A stretch of DNA of 53,930 bases from an uncultured Bifidobacteriaceae bacterium (GCA_964574545.1 CAZNOC010000004.1:1-53930), one strand, 5' to 3'; counted from the stretch's first letter, positions 4,209 to 47,934 are shown. Numbers and translations: made by a program. The notes: a model not told the origin generated them from the letters alone.

Positions 4209-4600
4209 AGCGGCACGTCGACTTCCTCGCCCTCCTCTACATCATCTGGGGCGCGCTCTTCCTGCTGGTTGGCGTGGCCGGACTCGCCCTGTCCGGCGGT
4301 GCGGCCGCGCTCGTCTCGTCGGCGGGCCTCGTCCGCCAGGGCGCCAGCCTCGCGGCCAGCGTGACGGCCATCACGCTGGCGGCGGTTGCCGTCCTGGCGC
4401 TGGTCTGGGCAGCGCTCCACCTCTGGGTCGGGAGCCAGTTGCGGCGCTATCTGCCGTGGGCGCGGCTGCTGGCGCTCGGCCTGGCCGTGATCAACCTGGT
4501 GCTCCTGCCCTTCGGAACGGCGCTCGGAATCTACGCGTGCTGGGCGTTGCTGACGGACGAGGGTCGCCGGCTGTTCGAGCCGTCCTCCTCGGACGGCTGA
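4205..4600 (+). CDS. Integral membrane protein (about 4 TM segments), unknown family
   Basis: GTG 4205 overlaps the upstream TGA (GTGA). Hydrophobic stretches: FLALLYIIWGALFLLVGVAGLAL, AITLAAVAVLALVWAAL, LLALGLAVINLVLLPFGTALGIYACWALL. Confidence 0.7.
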   Translation: MKRHVDFLALLYIIWGALFLLVGVAGLALSGGAAALVSSAGLVRQGASLAASVTAITLAAVAVLALVWAALHLWVGSQLRRYLPWARLLALGLAVINLVLLPFGTALGIYACWALLTDEGRRLFEPSSSDG

Positions 4601-4920
4601 CGGACGAGAGGGACCGGGGGCGGGTCGATCGTGCCCGCGGGCGTCCAGGGACCACAGCGGAAGACCCGCCGCATCGCAAGCCAGCCTCCCTGGACCAGCC
4701 CGTGATGACGCAGGCAGGCCGCCGCGTAGTGGCTGCACGTCGGTGCGAACCGGCACGTCATTCCCATCGCAGCATAGGCGCGTGACAGCGTGGCCTGGTA
4801 CACGTGGACGCCAGCCAGCGCCATCGTCGTGGTGACCTGGCGGTCCGGCGGCCGCGACACGTCAAGACCCACCAGCGCGGTGAACAGGATGGCCAGGGCG
4901 ATCAGTCGTCGGCGCATCAT
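4531..4920 (-). CDS. yidD: Membrane protein insertion efficiency factor YidD, with N-terminal hydrophobic extension and long C-terminal tail
   Basis: YidD signature CRFAPTCSHYAAACLRHHG..RRVFRCGPW. Start placed at the MMRRRL ATG (4920) because an 11-bp hairpin occupies the upstream part of the track ORF, which itself begins with TTG. Confidence 0.8.
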   Translation of the reverse strand: MMRRRLIALAILFTALVGLDVSRPPDRQVTTTMALAGVHVYQATLSRAYAAMGMTCRFAPTCSHYAAACLRHHGLVQGGWLAMRRVFRCGPWTPAGTIDPPPVPLVRQPSEEDGSNSRRPSSVSNAQHA

Positions 4921-14512: not shown

Positions 14513-14592
14513 GAGTTCAAGCCCCCGGTGTGCGGAGCCCCGGTGCGGCCGCAGACTGTCTTTGAACTGTGAACTGACAACTGACAACTGCA
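14513..14592. repeat. Degenerate copy of the TTCAAG/CTTTGAAC-core palindromic element, with a heptad array on the right arm
   Basis: GAGTTCAAG (14513-14521) .. CTTTGAACTG (14560-14569), followed by gaactga caactga caactgc. An internal direct repeat CCCCGGTG(T)GCGG occurs twice. Confidence 0.7.
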
Positions 14593-14609: not shown

Positions 14610-15665
14610 CTAGAGCTTCCTGGACAGGAACCTCTGAAGGTAGTACGCGTCGAGGTACTTGAAGGGGGTCACCCCGGTGCTGTAGTGCCCGCAGGGCAGC
14701 ATCGCCACTTCGTGGTCGAGTCCCCGCCGCGCGAACTCCGCAATGAGCTGCCGCGACAGGTCCATCGGGAACGTCAGGTCGTAACGCGCGTACACGAGCA
14801 GCGTGCGCAGCCGTGAGGCGCGATCGAGGTGGGACCAGGGACTGAGCGGCTTCCAGACCTCGCGCAGGCCCTCGAGGTCGATGTGTCCCTCGAGCCCGGC
14901 ACGGACGTGCGCGGTCGAGAGTCCCCGCCACACGACATCGGCGAAGAAGGGGGACACGTGGTTCAGGGCCTGCACCCGCACCAGCGGCTCGTGACACGCG
15001 GTGAGCGTTGCCAGGCACGACCCCAGACTGGTGCCCAGCACGCCTATCCGCTCGAATCCCTGTGCGTGCAGCCACCACACCGCGCGCCTGGCGTCGAGCA
15101 CGGCCTGCCGGCAGACTTGCAGGGTGCGTCCGACGTTGGCGCTGAGAACGTAATCGGCGCGTCGCAGTTCCGGTGGCATCCTGACGTCATGATAGGGAAG
15201 GCTCAACCGCAACGCGCTGAGGCCGGACCGTGCCAGCAGGCGGCACAACCCGACATGGCCGTCCGCGTCGGAGTTCCACTGGGGCAGCACGACGACCGCC
15301 CGTCGAGGCGCTGACGCGCGGCCCCGTCGCCACGGTTGCGCCGGAAACAACCTGGCGGTCACGGTGTTGTTCTCGGGGTGAGGCGTCTCGAGGGCGCTCG
15401 GGAACCGGAGGGTGCCGGCGCCGGGTCGGTCGCCCTCGCCCCCGGTCTCGCCGGTGAACTCGTACTCGGCTGTCGGCGCGGGCGTGAAGAAGCGGTCCGT
15501 GTCCGCCATCGCCTCCGCGGACCAGGCGAGCACCGCCTCGCCCGGCGGGGAGCCGCGATCGTGGCCGGGCAGCCAGTCGAGTCCCCATTCGAACGGCCGC
15601 ACGACGCGGTCGGTGCTGACGGATGCGAGACGCGCCTCCCAGGCGTGGAAGACCCTGGCGATCAT
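14610..15665 (-). CDS. Alpha/beta hydrolase (ABHD18/DUF2048-like)
   Basis: The ATG at 15665 overlaps the amidase TGA (ATGA). Nucleophile elbow GTSLGS. The family name is from memory of similar bacterial proteins. Confidence 0.8.
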   Translation of the reverse strand: MIARVFHAWEARLASVSTDRVVRPFEWGLDWLPGHDRGSPPGEAVLAWSAEAMADTDRFFTPAPTAEYEFTGETGGEGDRPGAGTLRFPSALETPHPENNTVTARLFPAQPWRRGRASAPRRAVVVLPQWNSDADGHVGLCRLLARSGLSALRLSLPYHDVRMPPELRRADYVLSANVGRTLQVCRQAVLDARRAVWWLHAQGFERIGVLGTSLGSCLATLTACHEPLVRVQALNHVSPFFADVVWRGLSTAHVRAGLEGHIDLEGLREVWKPLSPWSHLDRASRLRTLLVYARYDLTFPMDLSRQLIAEFARRGLDHEVAMLPCGHYSTGVTPFKYLDAYYLQRFLSRKL

Positions 15666-17020
15666 CCGGGCGCGATCACGCCTTCGCAGGTGCGCGCGAG
15701 GCGAAGGAGCCGCTGCGTGCCGTGATCCTGACCCACGATCTGCAGGCCCACCGGCAGTCCCGCCGCAGTGGGCGCGCACGGCACACTGATGGCGGGGTGG
15801 CCCGAGAGGTTGAAGATCTGCGTGAGCCGGAGCATCGCGTTGCGAACGGGCTCCTCGCCCTGCTTGATTGGTACGGTGGCGGCGCCGATCGGCGGGGCGG
15901 GAATGGCGAGCGCGGGCAGCAGCAGCCCGTCACGCCCGTCGAGGGCCGCCATCACGTCGCGCCGCAGCACCTGCCGGCCCAGTTGCGCGCGCACGTAGTC
16001 CTCGGCCATCACATACCGCCCCATCTCGAGCCTGAGGCGGACGTTGGGCGTGTAGTCGCCGGGCCGGCTGTCGAGCGTCGGCGAGTGATACGACGCGGCG
16101 TCGGCGAGCACGAGGTGCAGGTAGATGGCCGCCACGTCGGCGGCGTGCGGCAGTCGCACCTCTTCGATCTCGACGCCCGCGCGCCGCAACTGCTCCACGG
16201 CCCCGAGCACCGAGGCTTCGACACCCGCGTCGATGCGGTCGAACGCGTAGTCCCGGAGCAGGCCCAGCCGGAGGCCGCGCACGGGGAGTCCCTCGAGCTG
16301 CTCGCCGGCACGCCGCGCTTCGCCCCGCATGGCCTCGAACATCAGCCAGGCGTCGGTCACGGTGCGCGCCATGGGCCCGACGTGATCGAGCTGCCGGCTG
16401 AGCGGGACCACCCGGTCGGCCGGGATGTCGTGCGCGCACGGTTTCAGCCCCACGATGCCACAGGCCGCCGCCGGAATCCTGATGGACCCGCCGGTGTCGG
16501 TGCCGACCGAGGCGATCGACATGCCCGTGCGCACGGCAATCGCCGACCCGCCGCTCGACCCGCCGGGCGACCGCGTGGGATCAAGGGGATGACGGGCAGG
16601 CCCGAAGGCGGAATCCTCGTTCGTGGTGCCGAAGGCGAACTCGTGCAGATTCGTCTTGCCGATGAACGAGACGCCCGCGCCGCGCAGGCGCCTCGTCACG
16701 ATCGCGTCGCGATCGGCCTTGTGATCCCGGCGCACGCGCGAGCCCGCGGTCGTCGGCACGCCCTCCTGGTCGATGAGGTCCTTGAGCGAGACGGGGATGC
16801 CGTGCAGCGCGCCCAGGTAGCGTCCGGCGGCGATCTCCGCGTCGGCGTGGCGCGCCGCAGCGAGGGCCTCGTCTGCCGTGACCGTGATGAACGCGTTCAG
16901 CTCCGGGTTGAGCGCGGCGACGCGGGCCAGGCACTGCTCCGCGAGGGACTCCGCCCGTACGGCGCCACGCGCCAACTGCGGCGCCATCTCCGCGATGGAC
17001 TGCGAGAGCACGTCGGTCAC
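15662..17020 (-). CDS. Amidase-signature family amidohydrolase (GatA/AtzE-like)
   Basis: AS signature GGSSGGSAIAV..SVGTDTGGSIRIPAA and a KDLIDQEGVPTTAGS segment. The GTG at 17020 overlaps the TGA of the small upstream ORF (GTGA). The N-terminal 82 aa of the track ORF are Arg-rich and look non-coding. Confidence 0.9.
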   Translation of the reverse strand: MTDVLSQSIAEMAPQLARGAVRAESLAEQCLARVAALNPELNAFITVTADEALAAARHADAEIAAGRYLGALHGIPVSLKDLIDQEGVPTTAGSRVRRDHKADRDAIVTRRLRGAGVSFIGKTNLHEFAFGTTNEDSAFGPARHPLDPTRSPGGSSGGSAIAVRTGMSIASVGTDTGGSIRIPAAACGIVGLKPCAHDIPADRVVPLSRQLDHVGPMARTVTDAWLMFEAMRGEARRAGEQLEGLPVRGLRLGLLRDYAFDRIDAGVEASVLGAVEQLRRAGVEIEEVRLPHAADVAAIYLHLVLADAASYHSPTLDSRPGDYTPNVRLRLEMGRYVMAEDYVRAQLGRQVLRRDVMAALDGRDGLLLPALAIPAPPIGAATVPIKQGEEPVRNAMLRLTQIFNLSGHPAISVPCAPTAAGLPVGLQIVGQDHGTQRLLRLARTCEGVIAPG

Positions 17021-38270: not shown

Positions 38271-38368
38271 CGAACCGCGAACCGGAATAACGAATAACGA
38301 ATCGCGAATAGCGAATAGCGAATGGCGAATAGCGAATGGCGAATAGCGAATAGCGACCAGCGAACCAG
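38271..38368. repeat. Heptad tandem array (CGAAnnG, about 14 copies) filling the spacer before korA
   Basis: cgaaccg cgaaccg gaataa cgaataa cgaatcg cgaatag cgaatag cgaatgg cgaatag cgaatgg cgaatag cgaatag cgaccag cgaaccag. The array ends 1 nt before the korA ATG. Confidence 0.85.
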
Positions 38369-38369
38369 T

Positions 38370-40166
38370 ATGGACCGTACGAACGATTTCGCCTTCAAGA
38401 TCGCCACACCCAACGGCACGGGGTCCGCATCGGCCAACGGGCTGATCATGCAGGCCATTTTTCGGATGGGCGTGCCGGTGACGGGCAAGAACGTGTTCCC
38501 GTCGAACATCCAGGGCCTGCCCACGTGGTACGAGATGCGCGTCAGCAAGGACGGGTACACCGCCCGCACGCCGCACTTCGACCTGATGGTGGCGCTCAAC
38601 CCGGCGACCTATGCGAAGGACGTGGCCGAGGTGCGGAGTGGCGGCTGGCTGCTCTACGACTCGACGTGGCCGCTCGACGCCGCCCTGAAGCGGCCGGACG
38701 TCACCTACCTGGGCGTGCCGCTGGCCAGGATGTGCAACGAACGCTTCGCGGGCGTGCGCGAGCGCATCCTGATGAAGAACATCGCCTATGCGGGCGCGCT
38801 GGCGGCCTTCCTGGGCATCGACACCGGGATCGTCAAGGCGCTCACGAAGGAGAAGTATGCGGCCAAGCCGGCGCTGCTCGACTCGAACGAGCAGGCGATC
38901 GCGCTCGGGCACGACTACGCGACGACGCACTTCGAGTGCCCGCTCCCGATCCACCTCGTGCCGATGGACGAGACGAAGGACGCCATCCTGATCGACGGCA
39001 ACACGTCGGCGGCGCTCGGCTGCCTGTACGCCGGGGCCACGGTGGGTGCGTGGTACCCGATCACGCCCTCCACGTCACTCATGGAGGCGTTCAAGGGGTT
39101 CTGCCAGAAGTATCGCCGCGATCCCGAGTCGAAGGAGAACCGCTACGCGATCCTTCAGGCCGAGGACGAGCTGGCCGCCATCGGCATGGTCATTGGCGCC
39201 GGGTGGTCGGGCGCCCGCGCGTTCACGCCGACCTCCGGGCCCGGTATCTCGCTCATGAACGAGTTCCTCGGCCTCGCCTACTATGCCGAGGTGCCCGCCG
39301 TGATCTTTGACGTGCAGCGCACCGGCCCGTCCACGGGGATGCCGACCCGCACGCAGCAGGGCGACCTGATGATGTGCGCCTATGCGTCGCACGGCGACAC
39401 GCGCCACATCTGCATTTATCCTTCCGACCCGCGCGAGGCGTTCGAGTTCGCCGTCGCGGCGTTCGACCTGGCCGAGCGCTTCCAGACGCCGGTATTCGTG
39501 CTGACGGACCTCGACATCGGCATGAACGACTGGATGATTCCGAAGCTCACCTGGGATGACGCGTACCGGCCGGACCGGGGGAAGGTGCTCGGCGCCGAGG
39601 AGCTGGAGCACGTCGCGCAGTTCCATCGCTACCTGGACGTGGACGGCGACGGCATCCCTGCCCGTACCCTCCCGGGAGTGCATCCGAACGGCGCCTACTT
39701 CGCGCGGGGCTCCGGCCACAACCGCTACGGCCGCTACACGGAAGACGACGAGGAGTACACGGACGTCGTCGATCGCATCGCCCGCAAGATCCAGAACGCG
39801 GCGAAGGCCGTGCCCGCCCCGGTCATTCGCCGCAGCCCGGGCGCGACCATGGGGGTGGTCACGGTCGGTGGGTGCCACGCGGCGTGCGTGGAAGCGCTGG
39901 ACCTTCTGGCAAGGGAGGGCATTGCGCTCGACTACATGCGGGTGCGCGGCTTCCCCTTCGGCGACGACGTGCGGGAGTTCCTCGCGTCTCACGAGGTCAA
40001 CTTCGTCGTTGAACAGAACCGTGACGCGCAGCTGCGCAGCTTGCTGACGCTCGAGACCGCCGTTCCGCTGGACCGCCTGCACTCGGTGCGCTACTACGGG
40101 GGGTTCCCGATGAGCGCGCATCACGTGGTGACGGGCGTGAAGGCCCGGCTGGACTGGGCGGCATAG
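38370..40166 (+). CDS. korA: 2-oxoacid:ferredoxin (acceptor) oxidoreductase subunit alpha
   Basis: N-terminus MDRTNDFAFKIATPNGTGSASANG, typical of KorA. The 16 residues upstream in the track ORF (MANSEWRIANSDQRTS) are a translation of the heptad repeat. Confidence 0.9.
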   Translation: MDRTNDFAFKIATPNGTGSASANGLIMQAIFRMGVPVTGKNVFPSNIQGLPTWYEMRVSKDGYTARTPHFDLMVALNPATYAKDVAEVRSGGWLLYDSTWPLDAALKRPDVTYLGVPLARMCNERFAGVRERILMKNIAYAGALAAFLGIDTGIVKALTKEKYAAKPALLDSNEQAIALGHDYATTHFECPLPIHLVPMDETKDAILIDGNTSAALGCLYAGATVGAWYPITPSTSLMEAFKGFCQKYRRDPESKENRYAILQAEDELAAIGMVIGAGWSGARAFTPTSGPGISLMNEFLGLAYYAEVPAVIFDVQRTGPSTGMPTRTQQGDLMMCAYASHGDTRHICIYPSDPREAFEFAVAAFDLAERFQTPVFVLTDLDIGMNDWMIPKLTWDDAYRPDRGKVLGAEELEHVAQFHRYLDVDGDGIPARTLPGVHPNGAYFARGSGHNRYGRYTEDDEEYTDVVDRIARKIQNAAKAVPAPVIRRSPGATMGVVTVGGCHAACVEALDLLAREGIALDYMRVRGFPFGDDVREFLASHEVNFVVEQNRDAQLRSLLTLETAVPLDRLHSVRYYGGFPMSAHHVVTGVKARLDWAA

Positions 40167-40173
40167 GGAGTTT

Positions 40174-40253
40174 CCAGTGGCCAGTTGCCAGTTCAAAGGC
40201 CGCCTCAGCCCTCGCGCACCTTTGAACTGATAACTGACAACTGATGACTGAAG
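40174..40253. repeat. Palindromic element: CCAGTnn heptads, CAGTTCAAAGG core, loop, CCTTTGAACTG core, nnnACTG heptads
   Basis: ccagtgg ccagttg ccagttcaaagg (40174-40199), a 19-nt loop, then cctttgaactg ataactg acaactg atgactg (40219-40250). It lies between the korA stop and the korB ATG. Confidence 0.85.
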
Positions 40254-40260
40254 ACCAACC

Positions 40261-41316
40261 ATGACCTACATCACCAAGCCAAAGGTCCACCACCCTTCGC
40301 TCCAGAAGAACGCCATCGGGCTGACCCGCCGCGACTACGAGGGGTCGATGTCCACCCTCTGTGCCGGCTGCGGGCACGACTCGGTCACGGCGGCGGTCAA
40401 CCAGGCGTTCTGGGAACTCGACATCGCGCCCTACAAGGTGGCGAAGCTCTCGGGCATCGGGTGCTCGTCGAAGACGCCGACGTACTTCCTGAAGGAGGCG
40501 CACGGTTTCAACAGCGTGCACGGCCGCATGCCGGCGCTGGCGACCGGGGCGAACGCGGCCAACGGCGACGTCATCTACATCGGCGTCTCGGGCGACGGCG
40601 ACTCGCTGTCGATCGGGCTCGGACAGATGTGCCATGCGATCCGCCGCAACGTGAACCTGCTGTACGTCCTCGAGAACAACGGCGTGTACGGGCTGACGAA
40701 GGGCCAGTTCTCGGCCTCGGCCGATCCGGGATCCACCAGCAAGAAGGGCGAGGCCAACACGATGGAGGCCATCGACGGCTGCCTCCTGGCCCTGTCGCTC
40801 GGCGCCACGTTCGTCGCCAGGAGCTTCTCGGGCGACAAGGCGCAGCTTGTCCCCATCCTGAAGGCGGGGCTCGCGCACAGAGGCTTTGCCTTCATCGACG
40901 TGATCTCGCCGTGCGTGACCTTCAACGACCACGAGGGGTCCACCAAGAGCTACGCCTACACGCGCGAGCACAACGTGGAAGTCGTGCAGGCCGACTTCGT
41001 GCCGCCGAGGGCCGAGATCACGACCGACTACGAGCCGGGCACCGCACGCAACGTGATGCTGCACGACGGAAGCTGGGTCCGGCTGCGGAAGCTGGCCGAG
41101 GACTACGACCCGACCGACCGCGACCGCGCGTACGCCTACATCCGCGAGCAGCAGCGGAAGGGCGAGGTCGTGACGGGCCTGCTGCACATCTCGCCCACGT
41201 CGAAGGACATGCACGAGCAGGCCGGCACGGTGCCGGCGCCCCTCGTGCACCTGCCGTACGAGCAGCTGTGCCCGGGCAGCGCCGAGCTGGAGAAGCTTCA
41301 GCAGCGGTTCAGATAG
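40261..41316 (+). CDS. korB: 2-oxoacid:ferredoxin oxidoreductase subunit beta (TPP-binding)
   Basis: LCAGCGH cysteine motif and GVSGDGDSLSIG TPP-binding motif. 351 aa. Confidence 0.92.
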   Translation: MTYITKPKVHHPSLQKNAIGLTRRDYEGSMSTLCAGCGHDSVTAAVNQAFWELDIAPYKVAKLSGIGCSSKTPTYFLKEAHGFNSVHGRMPALATGANAANGDVIYIGVSGDGDSLSIGLGQMCHAIRRNVNLLYVLENNGVYGLTKGQFSASADPGSTSKKGEANTMEAIDGCLLALSLGATFVARSFSGDKAQLVPILKAGLAHRGFAFIDVISPCVTFNDHEGSTKSYAYTREHNVEVVQADFVPPRAEITTDYEPGTARNVMLHDGSWVRLRKLAEDYDPTDRDRAYAYIREQQRKGEVVTGLLHISPTSKDMHEQAGTVPAPLVHLPYEQLCPGSAELEKLQQRFR

Positions 41317-43454: not shown

Positions 43455-45965
43455 ATGAGACACCTGAAGCTCGCCGTCCGCACGTTGCTGAAGACCCCGT
43501 TCGTGACGGTCGTGGCCGTTGTCTCGCTGGCCCTCGGAATCGGGGCGAATGCCGCGATCTTCTCGCTCTTCGACCAGATGCTCCTCAAGCCGCTGCCGGT
43601 GCAGGCTCCGCGGGAGCTGGTCAACCTGGCGGCGCCGGGTCCCAAGCCAGGCTCCACCTCGTGCAATCAGGCGGGAGATTGCACGGCGGTCTTCAGCTAC
43701 GGGATGTTCAGGGACCTCGAGCGCGAACAGCAGGTCTTTGCGGGCATGGCCGCGCACCGTGCGTTCGGGGCGAACCTCGCGTACCAGGGACAGACGACCA
43801 GCAACGAGGGCATGCTCGTGTCGGGCAGCTACTTCCCGGTCCTGGGTCTGGTTCCCGCCGCGGGTCGCCTGATCGGCGCGCAGGATGACGCCAGCGTGGG
43901 ACAGTCGCCGGTGGTCGTGCTCAGTCACGACTACTGGCGCCGCCGCTTCGCCGAGGACCCTGCCATCGTCAACCAGACGATGATCGTCAATGGCCAGTCG
44001 ATGACGATCATCGGCATCGCGCCCGAGGGGTTTACCGGAACGACGCTCGGGAGCCGGCCGTCGGTGTTCGTGCCGATCACCTTGCGCGGGCTGATGCAGC
44101 CCGGCTTCGTCACCGACACCTCGAACGGGTTCGAGAATCGCCGCAGCTACTGGGTGTACGTGTTCGCCCGCCTCAAGCCCGGTGTGTCGATCGAGCAGGC
44201 GGCGACGGGCGTCAACGGTCCGTACCGCAACCTGATCAACGAGCTCGAAGCGCCGCTGCAGACGGGCATGAGCGATCAGACCCTGGGGCAGTTCCGTGCG
44301 AGGGAGGTGCTCCTCGAGCCCGGGTACCGTGGGCAGAGCAACCTGCACGCGAACGCGCAGACACCGCTCCTGCTGTTGCTCACGGTGACGGGGGTCGTGC
44401 TGCTCATCGCGTGCGCCAACATCGCCAACCTGCTGCTGGCCCGCGCCGCCGGCCGGGCCGGGGAGATGGCGGTTCGGCTGTCGATCGGCGCGAACCGGCG
44501 CCAGCTGATCGGCCAGCTCCTGACCGAGTCGTGCCTGCTGGCGGTGCTCGGCGGCCTGGCGGGCCTGCTGGTGGCACGCTGGACCATCGCGGGCATCGGC
44601 CTGATCCTGCCGCCCGAGGCCGCCGAGACGATTTCCTACGATTTGAGCGGAACCGCGCTCCTCTTTGCCGCCGGCCTGGCGCTCGCGACCGGGCTCCTGT
44701 TCGGCTTGTACCCGTCCATTCACGCGACGAGGCCGGACCTGCTGGGCACGCTCAAGGGCACCGCGGGTCAGCCGTCTGGCGCGCGCGCGGCGTCGCGCTT
44801 CCGGACGACACTGGCAACGGTGCAGATTGCCCTGTCGATGGCGCTGCTGATGTCGGCCGGGCTCTTTACGAAGAGCCTGATGAACGTGAGCCGCGTGGAC
44901 CTCGGGATCGACGTCGAGAACGTGATCACCTTCGGCATTGCGCCCGAGTTGAATGGGTACGCTCCGGAGCAGTCGCGCCAGCTCTTCGAGCGCGTCGAGG
45001 CCGAGCTGGCCGCGATTCCCGGTGTCGCGTCCGTGACGGCGTCGATGGTCGCCGCCCTCGCAGGCAACAACTGGGGTAGCGACGTTCGTGTGGAGGGGTT
45101 CGAGGCCGGCCCGGACACCGACCGCAACTCCCGCTATAACGAAGTGGGTCCCGGGTACTTCAGGACGATGGGCATCCCGCTCATGGCTGGCCGCGAGTTC
45201 ACCGACGCCGACGCGATCGGGGCGCCGCGCGTGGCGATCGTGAACGAGGCGTTCCTCGCGAAATTCAACCTCGGCCGCGATGCGGTCGGCACGCGCATGT
45301 CGAGCGGCGCCAGCGAGGAGCTCGACACCGAGATCATCGGCATTGTCCGGAACGCGAAGTACAGCGACGTGAAGCAGGAGGTGCCGCCGCTCTTCTTCCG
45401 GCCGTACCGGCAGAACGCGCGTCTGGGCTACCTCAACCTCTACGCGCGGACGGCGCTGCCCGCGGAATCGGTGCTGGCGTCGGTCCCGCCGGTGATGGCG
45501 CGCCTCGACCCGAACCTGCCGGTGATGGAGCTGAAGACCATGCCGCAGCAGGTGCGCGAGAATGTCTTCATGGACCGCATGATCACGACGCTATCGTCGG
45601 CGTTCGCGATTCTGGCCACGCTGCTGGCGGCGGTGGGGCTCTACGGGGTGCTCGCCTACACCGTCACCCAGCGCACGCGCGAGATCGGCCTGCGCATGGC
45701 GCTCGGGGCAGACGGCTCCCGCGTGCGGAGCATGCTGCTCCGGCAGGTCATGAAGATGACGATCGTCGGCGGCATCGTCGGGCTGGCCGCGGCCGTCGGC
45801 ATCGGCACGCTCGCGAAGTCGCTGCTCTTCGAGATTGAAGGCTACGACCCCACGGTGGTCGCCGTGTCGGTCGTCCTCCTGGCGATGGTGGCGATGACGG
45901 CCGGGCTCATCCCGGCGCTGAAGGCCTCCCGCATCGACCCGATGGTCGCGTTGCGATACGAGTGA
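43455..45965 (+). CDS. ADOP-family duplicated permease (two MacB-like/FtsX modules, no adjacent ATPase)
   Basis: N-terminus MRHLKLAVRTLLKTPFVTVVAVVSLALGIGANAAIFSLFDQMLLKPLP matches my memory of the acidobacterial duplicated orphan permease family. 836 aa with two FtsX-type 4-TM modules. Confidence 0.85.
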   Translation: MRHLKLAVRTLLKTPFVTVVAVVSLALGIGANAAIFSLFDQMLLKPLPVQAPRELVNLAAPGPKPGSTSCNQAGDCTAVFSYGMFRDLEREQQVFAGMAAHRAFGANLAYQGQTTSNEGMLVSGSYFPVLGLVPAAGRLIGAQDDASVGQSPVVVLSHDYWRRRFAEDPAIVNQTMIVNGQSMTIIGIAPEGFTGTTLGSRPSVFVPITLRGLMQPGFVTDTSNGFENRRSYWVYVFARLKPGVSIEQAATGVNGPYRNLINELEAPLQTGMSDQTLGQFRAREVLLEPGYRGQSNLHANAQTPLLLLLTVTGVVLLIACANIANLLLARAAGRAGEMAVRLSIGANRRQLIGQLLTESCLLAVLGGLAGLLVARWTIAGIGLILPPEAAETISYDLSGTALLFAAGLALATGLLFGLYPSIHATRPDLLGTLKGTAGQPSGARAASRFRTTLATVQIALSMALLMSAGLFTKSLMNVSRVDLGIDVENVITFGIAPELNGYAPEQSRQLFERVEAELAAIPGVASVTASMVAALAGNNWGSDVRVEGFEAGPDTDRNSRYNEVGPGYFRTMGIPLMAGREFTDADAIGAPRVAIVNEAFLAKFNLGRDAVGTRMSSGASEELDTEIIGIVRNAKYSDVKQEVPPLFFRPYRQNARLGYLNLYARTALPAESVLASVPPVMARLDPNLPVMELKTMPQQVRENVFMDRMITTLSSAFAILATLLAAVGLYGVLAYTVTQRTREIGLRMALGADGSRVRSMLLRQVMKMTIVGGIVGLAAAVGIGTLAKSLLFEIEGYDPTVVAVSVVLLAMVAMTAGLIPALKASRIDPMVALRYE

Positions 45966-45971
45966 GGGGTT

Positions 45972-46067
45972 CCAGTTGCCAGTGATCAGTTCTCAGTTCA
46001 AAGGGGGATCTGATGGAATTGGCGCACCAATCCCCTTTGAACTGGTCACTGACGACTGAGAACTACG
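45972..46067. repeat. Palindromic element of the same family as 40174..40253
   Basis: ccagttg ccagtga tcagttc tcagttcaaaggggga (45972-46008), loop, then tcccctttgaactg gtcactg acgactg agaacta (46031-46065). GAATTGGCG is repeated at 46015 and 46072. Confidence 0.85.
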
Positions 46068-46101: not shown

Positions 46102-46551
46102 TCACTCCAGGTGCGACCGCAGCATCCAGGCGTGCTTCTCGTGGACGTCGAGGCGGCGCGTGGCCAGGTCGGCGGTGGCCTGATCCCGTACCGCCTCTGC
46201 GGCTTCGATCACGCGGCGCGCTGATTCCGACACGCGTTCCTGATCCGCGACCAGGTTGGCGATCATCGCCTTCGCGTCCGGCCGGCCCGTCTCTTCCTTC
46301 ACCGTCGCCAACTCCATGAACGCGCTGTAGCTGCCCGGAGCGAACGCGCCCAGCGAACGGATGCGCTCGGCCACCTCGTCCACGGCCGTCGCCAGTTCGG
46401 TGTACTGGGTCTCGAAAAGCGTGTGCAGCGTGGTGAACATCGGGCCGGTGACGTTCCAGTGGTAGTTGTGGGTCTTGGTATAGAGCGTGTAGCTGTTGGC
46501 CAGAAGCGTCGACAGCGTGTCGACGACGGCCTGCTTTTCTGTGGTGCTCAT
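46102..46551 (-). CDS. dps: Dps (DNA starvation/stationary-phase protection, ferritin-like)
   Basis: HWNVTGPMFTTLHTLFETQY and a conserved Dps core. ATG 46551 is preceded by AGGAGG. The remainder of track ORF 46102..47877 is a shadow of plus-strand genes. Confidence 0.92.
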   Translation of the reverse strand: MSTTEKQAVVDTLSTLLANSYTLYTKTHNYHWNVTGPMFTTLHTLFETQYTELATAVDEVAERIRSLGAFAPGSYSAFMELATVKEETGRPDAKAMIANLVADQERVSESARRVIEAAEAVRDQATADLATRRLDVHEKHAWMLRSHLE

Positions 46552-46657
46552 CAAAGGCCTCCTGCCTTCATTAGACTCGAAATCGGCGGCCCCGTGCGCG
46601 CTGTGGCCAGCCTCCGTGGTCGGGCTCGCGGCGGCGGCGGGCTCTGGGCGCGCCGAG

Positions 46658-46663
46658 TATAAT
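46658..46663 (+). promoter_or_regulatory. Consensus -10 hexamer TATAAT, 17 nt upstream of the queD ATG
   Basis: gagTATAATttcctcgagctgcacacATG. No SD lies between the hexamer and the ATG, which implies a very short leader. Confidence 0.4.
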
Positions 46664-46680
46664 TTCCTCGAGCTGCACAC

Positions 46681-47118
46681 ATGGAAAAGATCATCGTTCA
46701 CGCGAAGTTTCATACCGGGCACCGGCAACTGGGCTATCCGGGCAAGTGCAAGTGGGTGCACGGCCACACATGGCGCGGCACCGTGACCGTGTCGGCCGAC
46801 GAGTTTCCGCGGGACGATCTCGACATGTCGCTGGACTTCGGCGACATCAAGCACATCATGCGGAATCTCGACCACAAGATTCTGGTGACCGAGCAGGACA
46901 CGACGTTTCTCGACCCGAACCTCTTCGAGCCCGAGGGCGTGGTCCTGCTCAAGGGCAAGGGCCCCAGTGTTGAGAACGTCGCGCATTACGTGTTCGACCA
47001 CGTCGTGGATCTCATCGAGGCGAAGTACCCGGGGCGGGGCGTGCGATACGCGATTGAGGTCTCGATTCAGGAGACGGAGAACAACATCTTCGTTGTCCAG
47101 AAGGACGTCACGGTCTAG
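46681..47118 (+). CDS. queD: 6-carboxy-5,6,7,8-tetrahydropterin synthase (PTPS family)
   Basis: His triad context HTGHRQLGYPGKCKWVHGHTWRGTVTV. 145 aa. Visibly lower-G+C codons than the neighbouring genes. Confidence 0.85.
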   Translation: MEKIIVHAKFHTGHRQLGYPGKCKWVHGHTWRGTVTVSADEFPRDDLDMSLDFGDIKHIMRNLDHKILVTEQDTTFLDPNLFEPEGVVLLKGKGPSVENVAHYVFDHVVDLIEAKYPGRGVRYAIEVSIQETENNIFVVQKDVTV

Positions 47119-47217
47119 CTGCACACCGCGAGGCCTCGGCCGATTGCGCTGTTGTTGCGCCGGGATTCCTGACATCCTGAGCTGAACGTGCGCCGGCGCG
47201 GCGCGCCGGAGTTCTCC

Positions 47218-47934
47218 GTGTCTACCGATGGCCCTCCCGTCTTCGAAGCGCGCGGTCTCACCAAGGTCTACACCATGGGCGAGGTGCCTGTGCAGGCGTT
47301 GCGCGGCATCGACTTCGATCTTCGCGCGTCGGAGTTCGTCGTGCTGCTGGGGCCGTCGGGGAGCGGCAAGTCCACGCTGCTCAACATCCTCGGGGGGCTC
47401 GACACGCCAACGGCCGGCCGTGTCCTGTACCACGGCACCGACCTGGGGGCGGCCGACGAGGCCGCGCTGACCGAGTATCGGCGCCGGCACGTCGGGTTCG
47501 TCTTCCAGTTCTACAACCTCATCCCGAGCCTCACGGCCCGCGAGAACGTGGCGCTCGTCACCGAGATCGCCGACGACCCCATGGTGCCGGACGATGCGCT
47601 GGCGCTCGTCGGGCTCGAGCACCGCCTCGGGCACTTTCCGTCGCAGCTCTCGGGCGGCGAGCAGCAGCGTGTGGCGATCGCGCGCGCCATTGCCAAGCGC
47701 CCGAGCGTGCTCCTGTGCGACGAGCCAACGGGGGCCCTCGATATCACCACCGGGATCGTCGTCCTCGAGGCGATCGCCCGCGTGAACGAGGAACTGGGGA
47801 CCGCGACGGTCGTCATCACGCACAACGCCGCCATTTCGGCGATGGCCGACCGCGTCGTGCGCCTCGCCGACGGGCATGTCGCCGGCGAGGAGCGGAATCA
47901 GTCGCGGCGCGCCGCGCGGGAGCTGGTGTGGTGA
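47218..47934 (+). CDS. ABC transporter ATP-binding protein (MacB/LolD-type)
   Basis: Walker [10 protein letters not shown], signature [14 protein letters not shown], Walker [16 protein letters not shown] 47218 has GGAG 6 nt upstream; the track start, GTG 47188, is possible but less well supported. Confidence 0.9.

Follow-up and report, generated by a model that had tools for sequence, protein, structure and literature searches.

The window examined here, a 53,930-nucleotide (nt) stretch of DNA deposited under an uncultured Bifidobacteriaceae bacterium (GCA_964574545.1, CAZNOC010000004.1:1-53930), carries an imperfect palindrome between korA and korB, the genes for two subunits of one enzyme. 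This locus raises the question of what the palindrome is, how it reached the junction, and whether it is kept for its structure or for its sequence. Two full copies span 40168-40251 (copy 1, at korA|korB) and 45973-46065 (copy 2), and a half copy spans 14513-14590 (copy 3). The three loci very probably belong to a dispersed palindromic intergenic family of Acidobacteriota, as is suggested by the fixed pentamer arrays, the free interior, the arrival of the element as a unit at korA|korB, its occurrence in transcribed spacers past stop codons, and the retention of its pentamers amid drift. On the wider account, in which this palindromic family would also act in mRNA as a self-masked array of AACUG heptads, we come down slightly on the doubtful side.

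The GTDB species representatives, one genome per species, were scanned with the pattern TTTGAACTGNNNACTGNNNACTG, which is matched by all three window copies. The scan yielded at least 112 blocks, each of up to 8 kb (loci are labelled L plus a number, e.g. L015). A recurrent core had been claimed in the first-pass annotation, which was made from the window alone, and this was borne out: an arm profile identified at least about 75 elements, comprising 55 inverted pairs and 20 high-scoring solo arms, almost all of them in Acidobacteriota metagenome-assembled genomes (MAGs). Among the matches listed, most blocks came from such MAGs, several of which had many matches, and the label Vicinamibacterales is attached to two of the MAGs. 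About 20 blocks were found in MAG MFD02840.bin.1.220, where one 8-kb block (L015) carries five elements. Both exact cores lie within 120 nt of each other in at least 50 elements, the two full window copies included. One complete element (L044:2103-2190) also turned up in a MAG that carries the label Chloroflexia (67% GC), on a contig of 1.4 Mb; this could reflect either horizontal transfer or a problem of labelling or binning.

The consensus arm reads (tG)T CAGTTtY CAGTTrY CAGTTrY CAGTTCAAAG(g) and contains four CAGTT pentamers at a period of 7 nt; about 78% of the arms have exactly three heptads and the core. The repeat unit was initially described as CCAGTnn. The 7-nt array is real, but the unit is better written as CAGTT-n-Y, and the arm as three heptads followed by the 10-nt core CAGTTCAAAG. 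Element ends have the form tGT|CAGTT...AACTG|ACr. Arms measure 31-36 bp, interiors 3-105 nt and whole elements about 60-135 nt, the measured range of total length being 58-172 nt. Subfamilies can be told apart by their interiors. One, of about 33 nt, is the 'cCCTCAGTGCCAtTTCCgGCAa' type and includes copy 2 and probably copy 1; in another, from Vicinamibacterales, the interior runs on into more heptads. Across the family the interiors show little structure (mean z -0.6), and the inner stem reaches just 2-3 bp past CAAAG. A second and unrelated palindrome, GTGGCTTCCGCCTKCAGGCGGAAG, resembling repetitive extragenic palindromes (REPs), recurs in MAG MFD00962.bin.1.9 inside or beside heptad elements: at L010:5085-5170, where two copies fill the element interior, at L050:940-1010, and in L074 near 4600-4700.

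Within the window, the exact 11-mer CAGTTCAAAGG occurs on the forward strand at 40189 and 45994 and on the reverse strand at 40219-40229 and 46034-46044, and copy 3 has a reverse-strand match with one mismatch at 14559-14569. By arithmetic, chance would give about 0.03 exact matches in 2 x 53.9 kb, or still less at the window's 69% GC. CAGT or ACTG at a 7-nt period was found only at 14566-14580, 40175-40240 and 45973-46048 in the 53.9 kb, and the inverted arms are 25-33 nt long with a complementarity of 79-84%. The left arm of copy 1 (40168-40198; 34 bits with the arm model) consists of GAGTTTC CAGTGGC CAGTTGC and the core CAGTTCAAAG at 40189. It is followed by a 21-nt interior (40199-40219), G CCGCCTCAGCCCTCGCGCA C, which, judged by eye, probably represents a shortened 'cCCTCAGTGCCAtTTCCgGCAa' type, and by a right arm (40220-40251; 30 bits), CTTTGAACTG ATAACTG ACAACTG ATGACTG(A), that ends 10 nt 5' of the korB ATG. 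Copy 1 reads ATAACTGACAACTGATGACTGA and holds three heptads of the published TAACTGA type, namely TAACTGA, CAACTGA and TGACTGA.

Copy 2 has the same design, with a left arm (45973-46003; 29 bits) of CAGTTGC CAGTGAT CAGTTCT plus CAGTTCAAAG, a 31-nt interior (46004-46034) of the 33-nt subfamily (compare L015:5321 and L064), and a right arm (46035-46065; 28 bits) of CTTTGAACTG GTCACTG ACGACTG AGAACTA. It starts 7 nt past the stop codon of an ADOP permease gene (45963-45965); on its other side, a convergent dps has its stop codon 36 nt away. Three copies had been proposed and two are indeed full, but only half of the third is preserved: the right arm is complete (14560-14590; CTTTGAACTG TGAACTG ACAACTG ACAACTG; 30 bits), the three left heptads are gone, and only a left-core remnant, GAGTTCAAG, is left at 14513-14521. 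The long imperfect hairpins expected of the full copies were likewise recovered in part. Copies 1 and 2 fold as RNA into long bulged hairpins on both strands, better than shuffled sequences (z -3.3 to -6.4), but this does not make the hairpin a selected structure; copy 3 folds no better than shuffles (z -1.7 and +0.1).

Compensatory changes between the arms, which the hairpin reading had called for, were not found. In 30 gap-free copies the covariation score was 0.088 against 0.084 in shuffles (reached by 153 of 500), and paired cells made up 82.7% against 82.1% in shuffles; a separate test on 50 copies again gave no covariation. The sole two-sided changes occur in the 2-3 pairs just inside CAAAG (GC versus TA) and follow the subfamilies. 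Free heptad positions are less complementary between the arms than expected by chance (29 of 116 against 41.2 +/- 4.4, p = 0.002), and a second count was likewise below chance (46 against 56.6 +/- 4.6, p = 0.012). It is the pentamer sequence that is conserved and not the pairing; given the lack of covariation and the anti-complementary free positions, there is no support for the long hairpin as the feature under selection.

The outermost heptad lies outside the search pattern, and here AGTT is kept at 82-90% and the free positions at 54-63%. Elements also occupy the same site in different MAGs, as at rpsK|rpsD (L083, L087), at ispF|gltX (L008, L020, with matching post-stop spacers) and in L015/L091. 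The pentamers are kept in these pairs, whereas the interiors differ both in sequence and in length (33 vs 3, 18 vs 36 and 33 vs 40 nt); third-codon identity of the flanking genes is 0.41-0.77. Constrained positions in the same-site pairs are 88% identical and free positions 50%, values that are inflated and supportive only, both members being pattern-selected. Strain variation in copy 1 itself is uncompensated, because contigs from two stromatolite runs (X1 and X2) carry A>G at 40197 and C>G at 40200 in the left core (CAAAGGC to CAAGGGG) and have an unchanged right arm. The window is itself a contig of a stromatolite metagenome. Copy 1 was present, and an empty-site joint was not seen, when stromatolite DNA metagenome contigs were compared with the window. 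Raised read depth over the element in four stromatolite-study runs reflects other copies of the family.

The arrival of copy 1 was traced through 80 metagenome korB loci (KorB 64-85% identical), of which the 44 that reached the korA-korB junction were examined (KorB 65-84% identical). None of the 44 orthologous junctions contains the element. In the closest relatives (L114, L118, L119, L121 and L123) korA and korB overlap, stop codon on start codon (gcggcATGAcc), an arrangement that implies translational coupling, lost in the window lineage through the insertion. The junction of another relative, L117, reads gcggcaTAGgacctccATG and aligns with the window as gcggcaTAGG | element | GACCaaCCATG, that is, with the flanks of 40168-40252. 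Copy 1 is therefore a lineage-specific insertion of about 85 nt (40168-40252) that was gained as a unit, and at most 1 nt is duplicated at the site. In L121 (1484-1560; KorB 81% identical) the korB stop codon is where a sister palindrome begins, (CAGTTYC)x3 ... (RnnACTG)x5, which lacks the CAAAG core; the window has no element at its korB stop codon.

The coding strand of the flanking genes was assigned from the codon-position G+C pattern, which resolved both flanks for 26 elements. Ten of these lie in -/- contexts, eight in +/+ and eight between convergent genes, and none between divergent genes. Gene tails facing an element all end 1-41 nt away, mostly less than 20 nt, and in tandem contexts the following start codon is often 6-26 nt beyond the element. 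Either orientation relative to the adjoining gene occurs. The sites in housekeeping operons include korA|korB, positions upstream of tpiA (with pgk as the assumed neighbour), rplF, rpmJ and rpsD, the spacer between ispF and gltX, and the cmk-rpsA-HU region. In metatranscriptome contigs the arms are joined to other interiors, and some of the contigs pass from a coding region into the element. Soil metatranscriptome contigs at a ribosomal-protein locus were fragmentary; the rpsK|rpsD spacer in RNA contigs of other taxa measures just 13-40 nt.

The gene context given for the window copies, i.e. a korA-korB junction and a convergent ADOP permease and dps, was correct by Pfam and TIGRFAM matches. 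The korA-like gene (38322-40166, forward strand) encodes the alpha subunit of a 2-oxoacid:acceptor oxidoreductase (Pfam POR and POR_N; TIGR03710, 541 bits) and its stop codon lies 1-2 nt 5' of copy 1. The korB-like gene for the beta subunit (40261-41316, forward strand) starts 10 nt 3' of the copy, with no Shine-Dalgarno motif between copy 1 and its start codon. A Shine-Dalgarno-like GGGAG was noted at 40166-40170, adjoining copy 1 on the left, and only AGACCAACC (40252-40260) lies between the right arm and the ATG of korB. A folded hairpin would bring GGGAG to about 10 nt from the korB start and might form a split ribosome-binding site, which is speculative.

Upstream of copy 2 lies the gene for an ADOP-family duplicated permease (43455-45965, forward strand; TIGR03434, 839 bits against a cut-off of 622). 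The convergent gene is a Dps-like ferritin-fold gene (46102-46650, reverse strand), where 46650 is the edge of the searched stretch only; the mechanical open reading frame (ORF) around it (46102-47877, reverse strand, 591 aa) is over-extended, as the ferritin/Dps match is confined to the C-terminal ~140 residues (453-591). Copy 3 follows a 75-aa ORF (stop codon 14505-14507) and faces a convergent RcgR-like hydrolase gene (14610-15779, reverse strand) whose stop codon is 19 nt from the right arm. No tRNA or tmRNA genes were found in the window, and the plasmid collection gave no match. The window had no Rfam 15 match at the gathering thresholds, and three element-rich loci gave just a chance microRNA match at E <= 0.1.

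Several of these features recall a repeat described in marine Beggiatoaceae. TAACTGA occurs as direct repeats of 2-6 units, in 169 sets and one inverted repeat in the 'Maribeggiatoa' genome, and also in other Beggiatoaceae, Thiocystis, cyanobacteria and five Bacteroidetes (MacGregor 2015, PMC4679880). Most sets (147 of 170) point to a start codon, mostly one without a ribosome-binding site, and the sites include those upstream of rpsD, rpsA, rplC, fusA and pnp; the author suggested that a regulator acting after transcription, for example S1, Csp or CsrA, is involved (PMC4679880). TAACTGA, being AACTG with AT added, is one case of the AACTG-R-Y of the present family, so that pentamer and 7-nt period are the same. 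Each arm here has four such pentamers in tandem, and TAACTGA likewise comes in sets of 2-6; both repeats are intergenic and are found within ribosomal-protein operons, including upstream of rpsD, and close to start codons, which here often holds in tandem contexts. However, the TAACTGA sets are direct and strand-polar (1 of 170 inverted) and have no predicted secondary structure, whereas 55 of about 75 elements here are inverted pairs on a conserved CAAAG...CTTTG core and the full copies fold. The present family further differs in its fixed unit number and two free spacer bases, in being defined by proximity to stop codons, with some copies between convergent genes, and in its host phylum, Acidobacteriota, which MacGregor 2015 does not report.

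We tentatively propose that the element acts at the RNA level. On the transcript of either strand the 3' arm would read CUUUGAACUG followed by (R-Y-AACUG)x3, which is the heptad of the TAACTGA repeats. The AACUG array would be the part that is recognised, where either a sequence-specific binder of single strands or the ribosome would land, and the 5' arm, a CAGUU array, would be its built-in antisense mask. Mismatched spacer bases would then give a bulged hairpin that stays openable. Processing or 3'-end stability of the mRNA would be expected to be affected, as would translation of the cistron downstream, but termination of transcription would not. A masked array of this kind would account for arms that are equally conserved without covariation, for the free spacers and free loop, for the lack of copies in untranscribed spacers and for the strand polarity of the direct-repeat relatives.

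A number of observations weigh against this proposal. Eight of the 26 resolved contexts are convergent and have no downstream start codon, so control of start codons is not the whole story, and about half of the downstream genes, judged by eye, are preceded by a Shine-Dalgarno-like motif. G.U wobbles show no sense-strand bias (48 vs 37, p = 0.28), which means that a strand-specific RNA-pairing signature is lacking. The copies were collected with a pattern that requires intact pentamers in one arm, and conservation is consequently inflated for the two inner heptads and the orthologous pairs. Co-transcription and read-through at korA|korB are what we infer; the window sequence was matched in DNA metagenomes only. 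We know of no binding factor for the family or for the TAACTGA repeats. Lastly, conservation without covariation would be explained equally by a protein that reads double-stranded DNA, for instance a transposase or a heptad binder of the ribbon-helix-helix type.

That last alternative is the main rival, which we place on the unlikely side. The element would be either a non-autonomous miniature transposon (MITE), with terminal inverted repeats of 33-36 bp made of four transposase sites, or a set of heptad operators for a host protein, and the hairpin would be a by-product. Both arms are conserved in sequence without covariation, the ends resemble tGT...ACa, the whole unit was gained at korA|korB, interior subfamilies of about 33 nt are common to copies within and between genomes, either orientation relative to the neighbouring gene is found, and intact solo arms exist. 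Against this, a target-site duplication of 2-5 nt was not above chance at offsets 0-4 in 32 copies, nor at korA|korB, although erosion of old copies is possible. In the approximately 1.1 Mb of collected loci there was no ORF between two arms 0.3-8 kb apart, nor did we see a transposase. Interiors of copies in the same genome are by eye roughly two-thirds alike, so there was no recent burst, and the pentamers are nonetheless intact at shared sites. Finally, zero divergent-spacer copies among 26 is unexpected for a DNA site or for random insertion.

Set beside known MITEs, the family has the terminal inverted repeats, the small size and the filled versus empty orthologous sites, but lacks the target-site duplication. 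MITEs that fold in mRNA (Neisseria Correia, ERIC, RUP and BOX elements) are similar in having about 100 nt, terminal inverted repeats of about 30 bp, co-transcription, which is probable here, and filled and empty sites. They differ from the present family in that Correia duplicates TA; the family has no such duplication and no known related insertion sequence, its inverted repeats are built of repeated pentamers, and its interior is not conserved. A precedent for a DNA-level heptad reader is omega, a ribbon-helix-helix repressor of plasmid pSM19035, which reads contiguous 7-bp WATCACW units, direct or inverted, on double-stranded DNA. Omega works at plasmid promoters and centromeres and on another motif, however, and no such protein is linked to the family. 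A double-stranded DNA reader would explain the constraint as well as an RNA reader does, but it would leave the positional bias, the missing duplication and the missing autonomous copy unexplained. The remaining alternatives fit less well than the DNA reader.

A distinctly unlikely alternative is that the element is a structural hairpin of REP type whose sequence is irrelevant, acting as a barrier to 3' exonucleases or as a weak bidirectional terminator or attenuator that tunes neighbouring cistrons. Such a role would suit the stability of the full copies on both strands, the sites past stop codons and inside operons, as with E. coli REPs, and the free loop length; in addition, canonical terminators are not enriched in the window (3 found against 6.5 expected). 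However, selection for pairing only would give covariation in the pentamers and drift in the heptads, and neither is seen, the spacer bases are mismatched beyond chance, and a terminator in korAB or ribosomal-protein operons would do harm. The terminator scan flags no element, and CTTTGAACTG stands after the stem in place of a T run, so that an intrinsic terminator was rejected. The doubt already voiced over a strong terminator at korA-korB was well founded, such a terminator being unlikely given the absent U-tract and the copies lying inside ribosomal-protein and presumed pgk-tpiA operons and korAB itself.

The label 'REP-like' describes the distribution of the elements well, as short, high-copy extragenic palindromes that follow genes on the 3' side or separate cistrons, point either way, and have no target-site duplication but long persistence at orthologous sites, features shared with REPs, BIMEs and REPINs. 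It does not describe their composition. REP units are imperfect palindromes, 20-40 nt long, whose head, GTAG or CGTC, is conserved (PMC3733652); the present family lacks this head, and its arm is a tandem heptad array and not a small palindrome. REPs of this kind also go with a cognate RAYT gene of the Y1 (HUH) type that the repeats flank; a tblastn search with E. coli RayT gave nothing below E = 0.26 in the window and the ~1.1 Mb of collected loci.

Neutral growth in place, in which heptamer repeats born of slippage are made symmetric by template switching at an existing hairpin and have no function, is in our judgement very improbable. An excess of heptameric repeats is known from many bacteria, and one proposed cause is slippage (PMC4692102). 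Inverted CAGT-heptad arrays around variable centres and with other spacer bases were found in Terriglobia, Blastocatellia, Planctomycetota, Armatimonadota and cyanobacteria, where the pattern selected the right arm only and not the left. Long unbroken arrays exist as well, such as 12x CAGTTCT in an Acidobacteriaceae MAG (L058:3785-3870) and many ATAACTG or ACAACTG units in Cytophagaceae and Chlorobiaceae (L039:1-130, L077:7406-7500). These long arrays show a microsatellite-like behaviour that is absent from the present family, in which the unit number is fixed at 3 + 1 and a non-heptad core, CAAAG, is conserved. Moreover, the korA|korB junction offered no prior hairpin, adjoining heptads differ at their free positions, which means that slippage has not homogenised them, and template switching would raise the complementarity of the arms, yet it is lower. 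In a Terriglobia sister class (L018 and L032; Terracidiphilus and Acidobacteriaceae MAGs), 3-5 CAGTnnn heptads flank a short G+C-rich hairpin on each side, with three elements per 8-kb block; TTTT sometimes follows the hairpin, as in ACCGGCTTTGCCGGGGTTTTGAACTG, and in the element at L032:309 the free heptad positions match between the arms.

Other heptamer repeats share part of this organisation. In cyanobacteria, the STRR heptanucleotide repeats of Mazel et al. 1990 reportedly include STRR1, CCCCAGT, and STRR3, CAACAGT. Both contain CAGT in the unit, and matching arrays were present in the scan (L082, L097 and L006). The GGGAnTn heptamers of Xanthomonas are intergenic, mostly of four units and in some cases arranged as inverted pairs (PMC4692102). 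These repeats resemble the present family in their 7-nt period, their 4-5 fixed and 2-3 free positions and their intergenic location; they differ in variable length, in having no conserved core, in fixed bases other than CAGTT and in that movement as a unit was not shown. The reader of heptamer repeats is still treated as unidentified in a 2022 Nostoc preprint.

An integron attC-like recombination site at the ends of gene cassettes is hardly credible at all: the imperfect inverted repeat, conserved at its ends and variable in the middle, right after stop codons, and the five elements in the 8-kb block L015, would fit, but the intervening genes have housekeeping roles and mixed orientation (cmk, rpsA, HU, HIT, acyl-CoA dehydrogenase), a context that effectively refutes the cassette reading, copies lie inside korAB and ribosomal-protein operons, the RYYYAAC and GTTRRRY boxes are absent, and no integrase was seen. 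Other identities considered were also set aside. Nothing supports the likeness of GTTCAAA in the core to a T-loop. A sigma-54 box in the 33-nt interior was dropped with its TTGC and TGGCAC parts in the wrong order, as was a LexA box with half-sites that point the wrong way. The Myb motif CNGTTR, the V(D)J heptamer, head-to-head type III restriction sites, Chi and boxA were likewise dropped, no test supporting them.

The family is a palindromic, cored form of the unexplained AACTG-type heptamer repeats, and in the literature searched we did not find such repeats reported from Acidobacteriota. Heptamers such as STRR, GGGAATC and TAACTGA are over-represented in many bacteria and after 35 years have no known reader or function. 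To these the family adds a fixed four-plus-four pentamer architecture with a core, maintenance by sequence and not by pairing, and retention at the same intercistronic sites across genomes. It also provides a defined bait, (AACUG-R-Y)4 or the duplex, for finding a binding factor, and a concrete test case in korA and korB, parted by an 85-nt insert that is missing in relatives. For genome annotation, the family explains AT-rich islands past stop codons in Acidobacteriota and cautions against calling them terminators.

A broader conjecture, which we rate as rather improbable, is that AACUG/CAGUU at a 7-nt period constitutes a cross-phylum 'heptad code' of one conserved factor, for example an OB-fold single-strand binder, with ribosomal protein S1 and cold-shock proteins as possibilities; OB-fold binders of these kinds cover roughly seven nucleotides per domain. 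Such a code would span Beggiatoaceae, cyanobacteria, Bacteroidetes, Acidobacteriota, Planctomycetota and Armatimonadota. If this were true, the palindromic form in Acidobacteriota would be a self-masking switch between cistrons, and translation independent of Shine-Dalgarno motifs, or the fate of the mRNA, would be set in this way for hundreds of genes, ribosomal-protein operons included.

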